From an uncultured bacterium (GTDB taxonomy: Bacteria > Hydrothermota > Tepidihabitantia > B3-TA06): DNA of 52,255 bases. Shown piece by piece: positions 18,056-23,641 of the stretch; positions within the stretch are counted from its first letter, which is position 1, and every line of letters begins with the position of its first letter. The notes below the pieces were generated by a model. That model had not been told where the DNA came from. It saw only the letters and a program-made list of their open reading frames with translations, and ran no database searches. The translations under genes and the position numbers were made by a program. The stretch covers positions 30,178-82,432 of the forward strand of contig CAZUXE010000005.1 of NCBI GenBank assembly GCA_964624585.1, given 5' to 3'.

Positions 18056-18093
18056 AGTAGTAAGGGGGACTCCAATGGAGTCCCCCTTCTGCT
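18056..18093. terminator. Strong inverted repeat between convergent genes; probable bidirectional terminator or stabiliser
   Basis: AAGGGGGACTCC-AAT-GGAGTCCCCCTT is a perfect 12-bp stem, extendable by AGTAG/CTGCT; only weak U-tails. Confidence 0.65.
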
Positions 18094-18136: not shown

Positions 18137-18637
18137 TTATTCAATTCCAAGCTTACGCCGCGTTGCCGGAATCAGACCGCCTTGAGCAATGAGATCAAGG
18201 ATAAACTCCGGCAAAGGCTCAAATGATAACTCCTTACCTGTAGTATGATTAATAAGCTTTCCAGCTTCCAAATCAACTTCTACATCATCGCCTCCTGAAA
18301 CCTGTTTGCGTATGTCAGGAACAATAGCAATTGGCAGTCCCAAATTTATGGCGTTACGGTAGAATATACGTGCAAATGATTCTGCAATAACACAGCCAAT
18401 ACCAAAATATCGTATCGCGGTAGCCGCCTGTTCGCGTGAGGAACCGCATCCAAAATATTTTCCGGCAACTATAATATCGCCTGGTTTGGCTTGAGTACGA
18501 AAATTAGGATAAACCGTTTCAAAAAGATACTTCGGGGTTTCTTCTGCATCAGTTACCTTCATATAGCGTCCCGGGAATATAACGTCGGTATTTACGTCAT
18601 CCGGGAATATCCAGGCTTTTCCTCTAACAGATTTCAT
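18137..18637 (-). CDS. 3-isopropylmalate dehydratase small-subunit family (LeuD/HacB/DmdB-like)
   Basis: DDVNTDVIFPG, FGCGSSREQA, AESFARIFYRNAINLGLP; start at ATG 18637 with SD GGAGG. Confidence 0.9.
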   Translation of the reverse strand: MKSVRGKAWIFPDDVNTDVIFPGRYMKVTDAEETPKYLFETVYPNFRTQAKPGDIIVAGKYFGCGSSREQAATAIRYFGIGCVIAESFARIFYRNAINLGLPIAIVPDIRKQVSGGDDVEVDLEAGKLINHTTGKELSFEPLPEFILDLIAQGGLIPATRRKLGIE

Positions 18638-18638
18638 C

Positions 18639-19901
18639 TCAGGCCTCCAGATATTTGCGAGGGTCTGCAAGCTTAGCTTCAAGCGCCGATGCCGCTACCG
18701 TAGCGGGCGATGCAAGGTATAGGAAAGCCTCCGGCGAACCCATACGTCCCTGAAAATTACGGTTGGTGGAAGTTACCGCTACTTCGCCAGGAGCAAGGCA
18801 ACCCTGATGCGCTCCCAGACAAGGACCGCATCCAGCATTTACTATAACAGCACCTGCATCTATAAAGGTTTCAAGTATTCCCTGATTAAGGGCTTCGCGG
18901 TAAACCTTCCATGACGCGGGAACAACCAACAAGCGAACATCAGGATTAACCCGCCTGCCTTTGAGAACACGCGCAGCCTCGGCAAGATCTTCCAGACGAC
19001 CGTTCGTACATGAACCTATAACGGCCTGATTAATTTTCCTACCCGCAACCTCAGAAATAGGCTTGACGTTATCCACTTCATGCGGACAGGCAAGTTGAGG
19101 TTCAAGACTAGATATGTCAAAGGAATGCTCAGAAATGTAGCCCGCATCAGCATCAGGTGTCAGCATCTCATAGTCGCCCTTAGCAATGTTTTTAACAAAG
19201 GACTCCGTAACAGCATCGGGAATAACGAAGGCTGTTTTGGCTCCTGCTTCCATGGAAAGGTTAGAAAGCACCATTCTTGAAGCAATCGACATAGCAGAAA
19301 TGGCATCACCTGAGTACTCAATCGCTTTGTAATCAGCGCCGTCAGCGCCAATAGTGCCGATTACCTTGAGAACCACATCCTTAGCGTATACACCTTGGGG
19401 AAGCTTACCGGTAACGGTAATCTTTAAGGTCTCAGGAACACGCAACCACAACTCACCTGTAGCCCACACAGCCGCCATTTCGGTTGCGCCAACTCCGGTA
19501 GAAAAAGCGCCTAGGGCGCCACCTGTAGTGGTATGGGAATCGGTTCCCACCAAAAGGATACCCGGCCTTGAAAACCCCTCTTCAGCCAGCACCTGATGGC
19601 AAACACCTGTATTGATATCATAGAAATTCTCAATACCTTGCGCCTTGATGAATTCCCGCAATTCCTTCTGGCCCATTGCAGTACGTTCCGATTCGGCAGG
19701 AACTCGATGGTCAAAGATAATTACTATTTTTTTATTATCCCAGACCCGCTCCACGCCAATCTTCTCATAGGCAAGTTTAACCATACGCCCGTTTTCATGC
19801 GACATGGCAACATCAACCTTGGCCTGTACAATCTCACCAGCGCGAACTGTTTCTTTTCCCGATTTTCTGGCAAGAATCTTTTCGGCTAGGGTCATTGGCA
19901 T
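18639..19901 (-). CDS. 3-isopropylmalate dehydratase large-subunit family, aconitase-like [4Fe-4S] (LeuC/HacA/DmdA-like)
   Basis: GVCHQV, GTDSHTTT, IGSCTNGRLEDL, GCGPCLG, TSTNRNFQGRMG. Confidence 0.92.
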   Translation of the reverse strand: MPMTLAEKILARKSGKETVRAGEIVQAKVDVAMSHENGRMVKLAYEKIGVERVWDNKKIVIIFDHRVPAESERTAMGQKELREFIKAQGIENFYDINTGVCHQVLAEEGFSRPGILLVGTDSHTTTGGALGAFSTGVGATEMAAVWATGELWLRVPETLKITVTGKLPQGVYAKDVVLKVIGTIGADGADYKAIEYSGDAISAMSIASRMVLSNLSMEAGAKTAFVIPDAVTESFVKNIAKGDYEMLTPDADAGYISEHSFDISSLEPQLACPHEVDNVKPISEVAGRKINQAVIGSCTNGRLEDLAEAARVLKGRRVNPDVRLLVVPASWKVYREALNQGILETFIDAGAVIVNAGCGPCLGAHQGCLAPGEVAVTSTNRNFQGRMGSPEAFLYLASPATVAASALEAKLADPRKYLEA

Positions 19902-19910
19902 GATGACTCC

Positions 19911-20822
19911 TTATTTATCTCCGTATTTCTTTTCTACTACGGATTTAGGCAGGAAACACTTTTCCATTTCTTTATATTCAGGCAAACCGACTAGGTTCTT
20001 AAATTCATCAAAGGTACATAGGAGGTCAGTTCTATCAGGCATAATCCCGCGTTCTTTAAGAACCTTTAGGTATTCCCGAAGCCACTTGGTTACAACAAAA
20101 ATGGTTCCAACCGGCACAGAAACTCTAGCTACGCCAAGCTCTGCAAGTTCATCTATAGGAATAAGCGGAGTTTTACCGCCTACAACCGAATCAAACAGGT
20201 TGATTGAAACAGGTGCATCTATTTTTGCAATGGCATCGCGAATCATTTCCTTATCGGTTGGAGCCTCAAGGAAAATCATATCGGCGCCGGCTTTTGCATA
20301 GGCGTTAGCGCGTTTAATTGCGTCTTCATATCCATTAACAGCTATTGCATCGGTACGAGCGTTAATTACAAAATCAGGGTCCATATCCTCACGTGCCTCA
20401 ACTGCGGCTTGGATTTTTAGAACCATCTCTTCCTCACTAACCAACTGCTTACCTTCCATATGCCCACAGCGTTTGGGAAATACTTGATCCTCCAAATTAA
20501 CACCTGCAGCGCCTACCTGAATAAAATCCTGCACAGTGCGAATAACGTTTAAGGCATTGCCAAAACCGGTATCGCCATCACCCATAACTGGAATATCCAC
20601 CGCATGTGCCACACGCCAGGTCATATCCACAACTTCATTCCAGCCAAGCAGACCAACATCCGGCTTACCTAAAAGACATGCGGAAACACCGAAACCTGAA
20701 ACTTGAGTAAGCTCGAAACCGGCTTCCTGAATAAGTTTGGCCGAAAGTACGTCGTAGCACCCGGGCGCGACCACCGCCCGCCGCTCGTTTATCATTTTTT
20801 TAAGTTGAGTAGTTTTCTTCAC
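19911..20822 (-). CDS. Isocitrate lyase/PEP mutase superfamily lyase (PrpB / 2,3-dimethylmalate lyase / oxaloacetate decarboxylase-like)
   Basis: PGCYDVLSA, DGDTGFG, EDQVFPKRCGH, INARTDA, GADMIFLE; start at GTG 20822 behind SD GGAGG. Confidence 0.9.
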   Translation of the reverse strand: MKKTTQLKKMINERRAVVAPGCYDVLSAKLIQEAGFELTQVSGFGVSACLLGKPDVGLLGWNEVVDMTWRVAHAVDIPVMGDGDTGFGNALNVIRTVQDFIQVGAAGVNLEDQVFPKRCGHMEGKQLVSEEEMVLKIQAAVEAREDMDPDFVINARTDAIAVNGYEDAIKRANAYAKAGADMIFLEAPTDKEMIRDAIAKIDAPVSINLFDSVVGGKTPLIPIDELAELGVARVSVPVGTIFVVTKWLREYLKVLKERGIMPDRTDLLCTFDEFKNLVGLPEYKEMEKCFLPKSVVEKKYGDK

Positions 20823-20859
20823 GAAGATCCTCCGATTCACGTTTGTGAATTTTCCGGTG

Positions 20860-20887
20860 AGTATAGGCTGCACAGCCAAGAAGTCAA
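20860..20887 (-). promoter_or_regulatory. Promoter of the lyase-LeuCD-like operon
   Basis: TTGACT-N16-TATACT; downstream palindrome ATTCAC-N4-GTGAAT at 20835-20850. Confidence 0.65.
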
Positions 20888-21126: not shown

Positions 21127-22485
21127 ATGGATTTATTCGCCTTAGAGGATAGAGAAAAAAGCGACGATTTAGGCAACGCTCCCCTTGCTGAACGTATGCG
21201 TCCACACAAGCTTGATGAATTCTGCGGACAAAAACATCTTCTAGGCAAGAACAGACCTCTAAGACGCTTGATAGAGTCAAACCGTCTACCTTCGATGATA
21301 TTTTGGGGGCCTCCGGGTTCAGGAAAAACAAGTCTAGCACTCCTAATTGCAAAGTTGGTCAACGCTCAATTTATTGCCAAAAGCGCTGTAACCGCCGGAA
21401 TAAAAGATGTTAAACAAATAGCCGAACGCGCAAAGATGGTTTGGAAAGCTCATCAGCGGCGAACAATTCTATTTCTTGATGAAATTCACCGCTTCAACAA
21501 AGCACAACAAGACGCTTTTCTACCCTACGTAGAACGCGGAACTATAACCCTTATTGGAGCGACAACTGAAAATCCAAGTTTTGAAGTTATAGGCCCTCTG
21601 CTCTCAAGATCAAGGGTCTTTGTATTTAATCCTTTGGAAACGGATGATTTACTAGAAATACTGCGTCAATCTATAGCTGACGACCGTGGTATAAAAAATT
21701 TACATCCAAAGGTTTCAGATAAGGTGTTGAAATTTATTATTCAAATTGCAGCAGGTGACGCCCGCCGAGCGCTCAATCTCTTAGATACCGCGGTACAAGT
21801 AACTGAACCGGATAAGGATGGTAACCGAACGGTAACAATGGAAATAGCAGAAGCGGTTCTTGAACGAAAATTTCTTTTATACGACAAGGCCGGCGAAGAG
21901 CATTACAATTTGATATCGGCATTTATTAAATCAATGAGAGGTTCTGATGCCGATGCTGCAGTGTATTGGCTAATGAGAATGATTGACGCCGGTGAAGACC
22001 CTTTATTCTTAGCAAGAAGAATGCTAATTTTGGCAGCAGAGGATATCGGACTTGCCGACCCACATGCACTTACTATTGCCAACGCGGCAAAAGACGCAGC
22101 ACACTTTCTTGGTTATCCCGAATGCACTTTCCATCTTGCAGAAACTGCCATATATCTCTCACTTGCTCCAAAATCGAACGCTGTCCTTAAAGCCATTCAG
22201 GCCGCCCGAAAAGACATAGAACAAACCCAAGCCGAACCCGTCCCCTTACATTTAAGAAACGCACCCACAAGCCTTATGAAAACCCTTGGCTACGGTAAGG
22301 AATATCAGTATCCGCATTCCTATAAAGATGCGGTAGCTGACCAAGTCTATCGCCCTAAGGGAATTACAGGAAAGGTCTACTACAAACCTTCAGACAGAGG
22401 GTTTGAGGCAAAACTCAGGGAAAGATTGAAGCTCATGAGAGAACAAAAGCGAAAGATACGGGGCGCAAAGGAAAAGTTTAAGTAA
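21127..22485 (+). CDS. rarA: Replication-associated recombination protein A (AAA+ ATPase, MgsA/RarA)
   Basis: PLAERMRP, WGPPGSGKT, LDEIHRFNKAQQDAFLP, GATTENPSF, KSMRGSD, VPLHLRNAPT. Confidence 0.96.
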   Translation: MDLFALEDREKSDDLGNAPLAERMRPHKLDEFCGQKHLLGKNRPLRRLIESNRLPSMIFWGPPGSGKTSLALLIAKLVNAQFIAKSAVTAGIKDVKQIAERAKMVWKAHQRRTILFLDEIHRFNKAQQDAFLPYVERGTITLIGATTENPSFEVIGPLLSRSRVFVFNPLETDDLLEILRQSIADDRGIKNLHPKVSDKVLKFIIQIAAGDARRALNLLDTAVQVTEPDKDGNRTVTMEIAEAVLERKFLLYDKAGEEHYNLISAFIKSMRGSDADAAVYWLMRMIDAGEDPLFLARRMLILAAEDIGLADPHALTIANAAKDAAHFLGYPECTFHLAETAIYLSLAPKSNAVLKAIQAARKDIEQTQAEPVPLHLRNAPTSLMKTLGYGKEYQYPHSYKDAVADQVYRPKGITGKVYYKPSDRGFEAKLRERLKLMREQKRKIRGAKEKFK

Positions 22486-23641
22486 AGATTCTATCAAGCT
22501 CCTTTTTCAATATTTGGAGAGCGGCAGCAAACTTTGGCTTGTTGCTAGACATATTTGGCCAGCGATTGAGACCTGAAGGGTGAGGTAGAACAATAATTTG
22601 CACTTTACGCTTCCAAATACGTTTCTGAACTAACTCTCCGACTAAATCCATACCAGCAGTCTTGCCAAGAATGGTTTTAGCTGCAACCGAACCGATAAGA
22701 ATAAGAAGTTTCGGACGTGCGTGGGAAAATTCAGCCTCAAGCCAAGACAAACAGTTACGCCTCTGTTGACCAGAAGGCGAAGCGTCATCCTTACCATTAG
22801 AAGCAAGCCCAGGATAGCACTTTGCAACCGCTGTAATGTGTGCCTTGGAACGAATAAGCTCTTCCTTGTAACCTAAATCTGCAAACCATTGCCATAAACG
22901 CTTACCCGCAGGGCCTGAAAAAGGCTTTAAGGATTTGAGTTCGTGACGTCCAGGAGCCTGTCCTATGATAAAGATAGGTCTGTTAGCCCCACCCTGAAAC
23001 ACCACTGCCGGCTCCAGAAACTCAGAACATCTACTACATGCACGCAATTTATCAGCAAATTGGCGAAATAGCCTGTCCTGCTCTGCAATTGTACGCTTAC
23101 GCGCCTTCAAAGACGCTTCGCATCCACAATAATCTTGCCGATAGAGACCAAGTTCATTAGATATCTCAAGACTGCGCTTGAAACCTTCTTGCTTTTTGAA
23201 ATCTTCTGCTAAAAACTCTACACCGTATTTCAGAGCAAGGGCATTTCCCATATCCCGGAGCCAGTTAAACGACTTATGGGGACTTACCGACAGGGTTGTT
23301 GTAAAGTAATTGAATCTTTCCGATGCGGCAAGTTTCGCCGTTGCCTGCAAACGAAACTTGTAACATAACTCACAACGACGTCCCTTTTCCGGCTCATCTT
23401 CTAATCCGTGGATAAATTTTGTCCATTCATCAACATCCCGTGGGCCTTCTATAAGCTTGAAACCCATAGCATCTGCTACCTTACGGGTCTCAACCAGTCG
23501 TTTACAATATTCCTCCTGTGGTTCAATTTGAGGGTTGTAAAAGAAACCGGTTACATTAAATTTTTCACAAAGGCGCTCAAACACCGATGTAGCATCGGGC
23601 GCACAGCAGATGTGAAGCAATATTTTAGGCTTCCGAGACAT
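22478..23641 (-). CDS. queH: Fusion: epoxyqueuosine reductase QueH (DUF208) + uracil-DNA glycosylase-like domain
   Basis: N-half LLHICCAPD, FYNPQI, RCELC, TTLSVSPHK, YRQDYCGC. C-half CSRC, IGQAPG, PFSGPAGKRL, KCYPG, LPHPSG. Single uninterrupted frame. Confidence 0.88.
   Translation of the reverse strand: MSRKPKILLHICCAPDATSVFERLCEKFNVTGFFYNPQIEPQEEYCKRLVETRKVADAMGFKLIEGPRDVDEWTKFIHGLEDEPEKGRRCELCYKFRLQATAKLAASERFNYFTTTLSVSPHKSFNWLRDMGNALALKYGVEFLAEDFKKQEGFKRSLEISNELGLYRQDYCGCEASLKARKRTIAEQDRLFRQFADKLRACSRCSEFLEPAVVFQGGANRPIFIIGQAPGRHELKSLKPFSGPAGKRLWQWFADLGYKEELIRSKAHITAVAKCYPGLASNGKDDASPSGQQRRNCLSWLEAEFSHARPKLLILIGSVAAKTILGKTAGMDLVGELVQKRIWKRKVQIIVLPHPSGLNRWPNMSSNKPKFAAALQILKKELDRIFT

Follow-up and report, generated by a model that had tools for sequence, protein, structure and literature searches.

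What does a bacterium make of leucine-type genes when no leucine pathway goes with them? The question is raised by a three-gene operon in a 52,255-nucleotide stretch of DNA (the window; contig CAZUXE010000005.1) from an uncultured member of a WOR-3 family (source genome G000, 2.0 Mb, 93% complete), in which a gene for a C-C lyase of the isocitrate lyase/phosphoenolpyruvate mutase (ICL/PEP-mutase) superfamily is followed by genes for LeuC-like and LeuD-like hydratase subunits. No leuA or leuB is present in the window, as the original prediction had stated, and none was found in G000. That prediction described a hydratase-plus-lyase module, unlinked to leucine synthesis and probably catabolic, that cleaves its substrate to pyruvate plus an acid. 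The general description is borne out, while the products now appear more likely to be acetate and 2-oxoglutarate (or oxaloacetate), and the three linked genes turn out to have a fourth partner, a decarboxylating dehydrogenase, that had been overlooked. The explanation developed here, held with middling confidence, is that the four enzymes convert 2-oxoadipate, CO2 and NADPH by way of homoisocitrate and (R)-homocitrate to 2-oxoglutarate and acetate, as a route of lysine catabolism.

The fourth member becomes apparent from related loci. The lyase, LeuC, LeuD and a beta-decarboxylating dehydrogenase 54-62% identical to gene L001 of G000 share one operon in 53 of the 80 best-matching loci, mostly from Bryobacterales but also from Planctomycetota and Nitrospiraceae; the 7 Acidobacteriota loci without the dehydrogenase all end at a contig edge, and further four-gene operons are present on metagenome contigs. 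L001 is the only Iso_dh gene found in G000, and its orthologues occur in 11 of 11 genomes of the family. Its motif Y-x-S-P-I-V, invariant apart from one SPII, equals the YSSPIV of Schizosaccharomyces pombe homoisocitrate dehydrogenase, and it is without Asn115, a residue of isocitrate dehydrogenase (PMC11134350). The best hidden Markov model is AksF2, at 342 bits and under the cut-off of 540, with the leuB model also under its threshold (226 against 353 bits). The residues KY follow HGSAP (HGSAPKY), which we take to be an NADP signature. L001 thus has the SPIV-without-Asn character of homoisocitrate dehydrogenases but neither their NAD-type coenzyme site nor a score above the curated cut-off. 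Beta-decarboxylating dehydrogenases require secondary alcohols as substrates, so the module should connect a 2-oxoacid with the iso-acid formed by its carboxylation and with the tertiary alcohol isomeric to that iso-acid, and it reads as a 2-oxoacid elongation set in which a lyase stands where the synthase belongs. Dimethylmalate and methylisocitrate, being tertiary alcohols on which such a dehydrogenase cannot act, are disfavoured for the same reason. A complete four-gene operon (L079), sister to a Nitrospiraceae copy, also lies in a 0.7-Mb assembly labelled Patescibacteria, possibly through transfer or mis-binning.

Which acid the lyase cleaves is suggested by its active site. The protein matches PF13714, its gating loop reads EDQVFPKRCGH, including the KRCGH already recognized in the original prediction, and residues D55, D82, D84, E111, KRC119GH and R156 align onto their counterparts in Escherichia coli PrpB. 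Its predicted model (predicted local distance difference test score 94) matches structures of the petal death protein branch with Foldseek template modelling (TM) scores of 0.87-0.88, and petal death protein itself (1zlp) is the closest PDB match by sequence (~42% identity) and by fold. Sequence and model together place the lyase in the C-C lyase branch of the superfamily; the PEP mutase and carboxy-PEP mutase assignments were rejected, the loop differing from EDK-x5-NS and the scores being 109 against 320 bits and 219 against 420 bits (TIGR02319). The top NCBIfam score, 258 bits for prpB (TIGR02317), and the name methylisocitrate lyase given to homologues in some databases would fit a 2-methylcitrate cycle, with PrpB and an aconitase-type dehydratase, or a glyoxylate-shunt isocitrate lyase. 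The score is nevertheless under the 354-bit cut-off, and PrpB residues T212, R241 and R270, presumably the holders of succinate's far carboxylate, are replaced by F210, F242 and F271, so that PrpB was rejected as the identity of the lyase. No gene of the citrate synthase family (PF00285), to which PrpC belongs, was found in the 11 family genomes, and E. coli queries, which distant homologues may escape, gave no match in G000 to PrpD, malate synthase or CitF. Both routes are exceedingly improbable and largely refuted by the sequence. With the equivalents of T212, R241 and R270 missing, the leaving group is probably acetate, as for petal death protein.

At the positions that we assume to surround the C2 substituent in PrpB, three replacements (Y43>Q40, M232>R233 and L234>S235) are invariant among 120 homologues bar one gap, and are invariant in the Bryobacterales set too. 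The resulting larger, polar and cationic pocket suits a carboxylate-bearing arm, although it would not separate citrate from homocitrate. The branch of petal death protein, 2,3-dimethylmalate lyase and oxaloacetate acetylhydrolase (1zlp, 3fa3, 3m0j) shares with the lyase its fold, the K[RK]CGH loop and the Mg ligands, and 1zlp likewise has no succinate-binding arginines and a small residue at PrpB position 234. In contrast to that branch, the lyase has the invariant Gln (PrpB 43), Arg (232) and Ser (234), a 3-residue insertion after N208, and linkage to a hydratase and a decarboxylating dehydrogenase.

Petal death protein is a broad alkylmalate lyase, and its kinship with the lyase raises the alternative of an alkylmalate module, which would hydrate citraconate or dimethylmaleate, or reverse the citramalate or leucine steps from 2-oxobutyrate or 2-oxoisocaproate, and would yield pyruvate or another 2-oxoacid with acetate or propionate. 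The hydratase is nearest to the isopropylmalate/citramalate isomerase of Methanocaldococcus jannaschii, and one relative sits between alanine and threonine dehydrogenase genes, two points in favour of such a module. It is unlikely, however, given the pocket just described and a dehydrogenase with the Ser motif of tricarboxylate enzymes in place of the LeuB motif, far under the leuB cut-off. The original prediction had drawn its analogy from PrpB and from Eubacterium barkeri nicotinate fermentation, in which a LeuCD-type hydratase (DmdAB) feeds an ICL-family lyase (Dml). The latter resemblance in enzyme types is genuine; the nicotinate branch was nonetheless rejected, as neither the Mii/PrpF family (PF04303) nor the Mgm mutase family (PF01642) was found in G000, G001 or G003, the former also going unfound in all 5 genomes searched for PrpF. 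The module further differs from DmdAB and Dml in having a dehydrogenase, and in a lyase pocket that points to a carboxylate, not a methyl group, at C2.

In the hydratase, the LeuC-like subunit retains the cluster motifs GSCTNGR and GCGPCLG with three cluster cysteines, and the two subunits exceed the cut-offs of TIGR01343 (563 > 386 bits), TIGR02086 (553 > 410) and TIGR02087 (192 > 109), which places them among the two-subunit hydratases of the HacA/IPMI-archaeal type. They miss the equivalog cut-offs for leuC, LEU2 and leuD, the LeuC-like protein falls in a clade apart from bona fide LeuC, and no HMGL-like gene (LeuA, CimA, homocitrate synthase or Re-citrate synthase) was found in G000; leucine-biosynthetic LeuCD was accordingly rejected, and the refutation that the original prediction had offered, subunits grouping with genuine LeuCD in a genome with leuA and leuB, does not hold. 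The HacA and HacB equivalog cut-offs are missed as well (506 < 550 and 181 < 230 bits), which lowers membership in the homoaconitase family and not the claim of working like a homoaconitase. The LeuC-like gene is the sole aconitase-family gene found in G000.

Evidence on the reaction also comes from what takes the place of the lyase in relatives. In WOR-3 families f6, f9 and f12, the partners of a LeuC orthologue (60-63%) are a 254-aa protein that passes the citryl-CoA lyase cut-off and an additional SucCD paralogue, which is not the housekeeping SucCD; in several f6 genomes the Ccl-like gene, this paralogue and LeuC belong to an operon that also encodes the dehydrogenase, an HD protein and another LeuCD pair. 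Similarly, in family f7 the dehydrogenase and hydratases adjoin a CitD-CitE fusion and CitF, and in Synergistota a TAXI-type tripartite ATP-independent periplasmic (TRAP) transporter (62-70% identical) precedes either CitDEF or the ICL-type lyase. In a LeuC tree, built by quick maximum likelihood with SH-like approximate likelihood ratio (SH-aLRT) support, no bootstrap and some long branches, our LeuC groups with copies linked to the lyase or to Ccl in one clade (SH-aLRT 99), a larger clade adds the CitDEF-linked copies (SH-aLRT 98), and both stand apart from leucine-operon LeuC and from LeuC linked to citrate synthase and isocitrate dehydrogenase (IDH). Ccs/Ccl and CitDEF take the acetyl unit, as acetate or acetyl-CoA, off a citrate-like acid. 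From the exchange of CcsAB plus Ccl and CitDEF homologues with the ICL-type lyase, beside a related hydratase and behind the same transporter, we infer that the lyase fills a citrate-lyase-type slot with the same net reaction. It would do so with an unrelated fold and chemistry, with no coenzyme A (CoA), acyl carrier protein (ACP) or ATP, releasing free acetate and with the opposite handedness expected. Whether an undescribed lysine-catabolic route has thus recruited at least three unrelated lyases, the ICL member being the first homocitrate lyase and one free of CoA, ACP and ATP, is a proposal to which we give about equal weight for and against.

The Ccl and CitDEF versions are accompanied by a hydratase of a second clade, of which 23 lyase-bearing genomes, not independent where they are kin, yielded no clear member; two 42-44% matches are unclassified. 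An HD-domain protein of 170-195 aa (L022:7186-7869; L168:11446-11955) likewise occurs beside these two versions and, in a Desulfovibrionaceae genome, beside a transporter and the ICL-type lyase; neither it nor the second hydratase was found in G000. In G025, dapA-dapB lie directly upstream of Ccl-LeuC-LeuD.

An exchange of this kind leaves two tricarboxylates to be weighed. Were the substrate citrate, 2-oxoglutarate, CO2 and NADPH would give isocitrate, citrate and finally oxaloacetate plus acetate, the lyase being a CoA- and ACP-free citrate lyase that would give a fermenter of glutamate-family amino acids a way to acetate and pyruvate; the module may also serve both citrate and homocitrate. 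The swapped partners are indeed citrate-lyase homologues, a prochiral substrate fits lyases of both hands, and the shared transporter of Synergistota fits citrate, as do the glutamate dehydrogenase (GDH), pyrroline-5-carboxylate (P5C) dehydrogenase, RocD, Kor-like, SucCD and malic enzyme genes of G000. Several features argue the other way. The dehydrogenase has SPIV and not S-x-N-V, and because SPIV without the IDH Asn is the motif of the S. pombe enzyme, homocitrate is favoured. LeuC has SHEN in place of the QD motif of synthase-linked LeuC. A separate citrate route is often kept in genomes with the module, which favours homocitrate too, as citrate chemistry would be redundant: Bryobacterales also carry citrate synthase, AcnA, LeuC and several other Iso_dh genes, and three family genomes have a separate synthase-LeuC-IDH cluster, the IDH of G003 lying over the NADP-IDH cut-off. 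All 5 transporter-linked genomes tested already carry CitF. Finally, ICL-family lyases cut (2R)-malate skeletons, the form that LeuCD-type enzymes make, and CitE carries the name of a pro-3S lyase; a chiral substrate would account for an additional hydratase with the S-type lyases alone, one that prochiral citrate would make needless. The citrate version is doubtful, though it is the main rival.

Apart from this comparison, WOR-3 bacteria apparently use a two-subunit LeuCD-type protein with QDGTG and YFHLR motifs as aconitase (L177, G003:C42; L178, G049:C12), whose genes are flanked by those for IDH and for a citrate synthase of the Si or Re type.

Regardless of which acid is cleaved, the steps of the homocitrate route can be set out. 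L001 would carboxylate 2-oxoadipate with CO2 and NADPH to homoisocitrate, the LeuCD-like pair would isomerise this through cis-homoaconitate to (R)-homocitrate, and the Mg2+-dependent lyase, with C119 as acid, would cleave (R)-homocitrate to 2-oxoglutarate and acetate. Lysine would supply the 2-oxoadipate, possibly through an omega-aminotransferase resembling PH1423, and the 2-oxoglutarate could pass into the Kor-like/SucCD operon or to GDH. Although genes, families, linkage, lyase exchange and active-site residues are read directly from the sequences, substrate, direction and lysine as the source are deductions from them. The upper alpha-aminoadipate pathway and the methanogen AksADEF system share with the module a HacA-family two-subunit hydratase and an SPIV-motif dehydrogenase; the module differs in its lyase in place of an acetyl-CoA-dependent synthase, its NADP rather than NAD signature and its proposed reverse direction.

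The overall reaction should lie near equilibrium, and the opposite direction must be considered, in which the lyase, standing in for a synthase, would join acetate to 2-oxoglutarate (or oxaloacetate) and so supply biosynthesis with 2-oxoadipate (or 2-oxoglutarate). Synthases for homocitrate, isopropylmalate and citrate were not found in G000, two family genomes have amtB directly upstream of the lyase gene (L021:6584-7861; L175:4957-6611), and the promoter is strong and looks constitutive, all in keeping with such a role. Condensation of free acetate near equilibrium would however yield very little intermediate, and G000 carries genes of the diaminopimelate (DAP) pathway (dapA, dapB, a DapL-like gene and aspartokinase), with no match to RimK/LysX, ArgB, ArgC or ArgE by the same E. 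coli queries. The NADP signature, the ATP-consuming Ccs/Ccl sister version, built for cleavage, the DAP genes and the LysW-pathway enzymes not found in G000 together argue for carboxylation followed by cleavage, and make biosynthetic running very unlikely. Lysine biosynthesis through alpha-aminoadipate was rejected on like grounds, no homocitrate synthase, LysX/Z/Y/K or fungal lower pathway having been found beside the DAP genes in searches with E. coli queries, which may miss distant homologues.

The genome itself looks like that of an amino-acid fermenter, with two GDH-like genes, RocD, P5C dehydrogenase, a SucCD-Kor-like-ndk operon, fumarase and malic enzyme. An omega-aminotransferase like the Orn/Lys enzyme PH1423 (PMC9986279) is encoded in 10 of the 11 family genomes, in G000 by L291 (G000:C11:165-1493), alongside a separate RocD. 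KamA scores under its cut-off in G001 and G003 and was not found in G000, and the only GcdH candidate in the family is a 33-34% acyl-CoA dehydrogenase. A glutaryl-CoA dehydrogenase gene stands head-to-head to the operon at L093 and L060 and in its vicinity at three related loci, all five from Bryobacterales. Across WOR-3, the co-distribution of the module and lysine-entry genes does not discriminate. The omega-aminotransferase (L291, L187) is present in most WOR-3 families, yet in 0 of 13 f7 genomes; most f7 genomes have a eukaryote-like saccharopine dehydrogenase, with a lysine-ketoglutarate reductase-like gene upstream in G046. An AlaDh/PNT gene adjoining one homologue was considered as saccharopine dehydrogenase and proved to be alanine dehydrogenase.

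A number of observations weigh against the lysine-homocitrate route. In G000 the dehydrogenase is unlinked to the operon, and no other aconitase or IDH was found there, so that citrate chemistry would not be redundant in this genome. The small-subunit loop, which we take from HacB to determine specificity, reads YMKV (YMSI or YLNI in relatives), and the homoaconitase loop Arg (YLRT in MJ1271) is absent. Relatives of the lyase in Synergistota and one Desulfovibrionaceae genome stand behind TRAP or tripartite tricarboxylate transporters, with no dehydrogenase, which hints at uptake of the acid from outside, and of the two acids citrate is the more common; a Thermoplasmata copy of the lyase is coupled with the aconitase-type LeuCD clade, a pairing that also fits citrate. 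No proven lysine entry exists in the family, saccharopine dehydrogenase and Lat not having been found there and no gene being assigned to the aminoadipate-semialdehyde and aminoadipate steps, the omega-aminotransferase also occurs in families without the module, and the five GcdH-linked loci are kin.

The transporter-linked loci L032-L035 and L059, from Synergistota and a Desulfovibrionaceae genome, combine a 55-57% lyase with a transporter of the tripartite tricarboxylate type and with LeuCD of another clade, and two of them carry an RraA-type aldolase; another substrate is probable there.

A literature search, outside which most subscription journals fell, returned no homocitrate lyase, no reverse aminoadipate route and no paper joining homoisocitrate with reductive carboxylation and 2-oxoadipate. 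The pathway is thus apparently undescribed, its enzymes being variants of known families. If either the homocitrate or the citrate reading is true, the ICL/PEP-mutase superfamily gains a new substrate and amino-acid-fermenting bacteria a catabolic step that consumes CO2 and NADPH; if the lyase takes citrate as well, two rounds with the four enzymes could carry 2-oxoadipate down to oxaloacetate, with release of two acetate. Current annotation labels homologues and partners of the lyase methylisocitrate lyase, dimethylmalate lyase or leuCD, names that would lead metabolic models of WOR-3, Bryobacterales and Planctomycetota astray. Unlike the CoA- and ACP-dependent versions, a single-chain Mg2+ lyase offers the simplest handle on the substrate of this family of modules.

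The operon, claimed in the original prediction to have its own promoter and terminal hairpin, is real and conserved (Table 1). Its three genes are co-directional, separated by 9 nt and then 1 nt. The lyase start is placed at the GTG because the alternative TTG at 20879 falls inside the promoter and 120 homologues are ~300 aa long; the LeuD-like gene starts with ATG. Promoter matches by count are at chance level (6 found against 5.1 expected from shuffles), and a TTGAC-16/17-TATACT box lies 5' of the lyase gene in 7 of 7 relatives looked at. The hairpin, just beyond the 18137-20887 interval first described, has z = -5.2 against shuffles and a weak U tail, and lies between convergent genes. The neighbouring ferredoxin and rarA genes have other orientations and are unrelated to the module.

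Table 1. Coordinates of the operon (window positions) and of the unlinked dehydrogenase gene
Feature	Position	Strand	Basis
Sigma70-type promoter, TTGACT-16-TATACT	20860..20887	-	10/12 match; box kept in relatives
Ribosome-binding site GGAGG, 6 nt ahead of GTG 20822	20829..20833	-	Sequence; kept in relatives
ICL/PEP-mutase-superfamily C-C lyase, 303 aa; putative (R)-homocitrate (or citrate) lyase	19911..20822	-	PF13714
Large subunit, 420 aa, of a [4Fe-4S] aconitase-family hydratase (HacA/IPMI-archaeal type, SHEN motif)	18639..19901	-	TIGR01343/TIGR02086, tree
Small subunit, 166 aa, of the hydratase (LeuD/HacB/DmdB family; specificity loop YMKV)	18137..18637	-	TIGR02087
12-bp G+C-rich hairpin, probable terminator common to the operon and the convergent ferredoxin gene	18062..18088	-	
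Beta-decarboxylating dehydrogenase L001 (Iso_dh)	G000:C2:24710-25825		Unlinked to operon

The nearest loci are in WOR-3/Stahlbacteria assemblies at 85-93% identity. The lyase is present in 10 of 11 family genomes and 0 of 50 other WOR-3 genomes sampled, a wider scan adding three more WOR-3 assemblies with a 63% copy; on plasmids there are only distant homologues (<=47%). The operon (18137-20822) has 46.7% G+C against 41.6% for the genome, for which high expression or old transfer are possible causes. Elsewhere in the window, the open reading frame 22478-23641 (minus strand) joins an N-terminal QueH/DUF208-like half (HICCAPD motif) to a C-terminal half of a family-4 uracil-DNA glycosylase, a fusion also present in L021.

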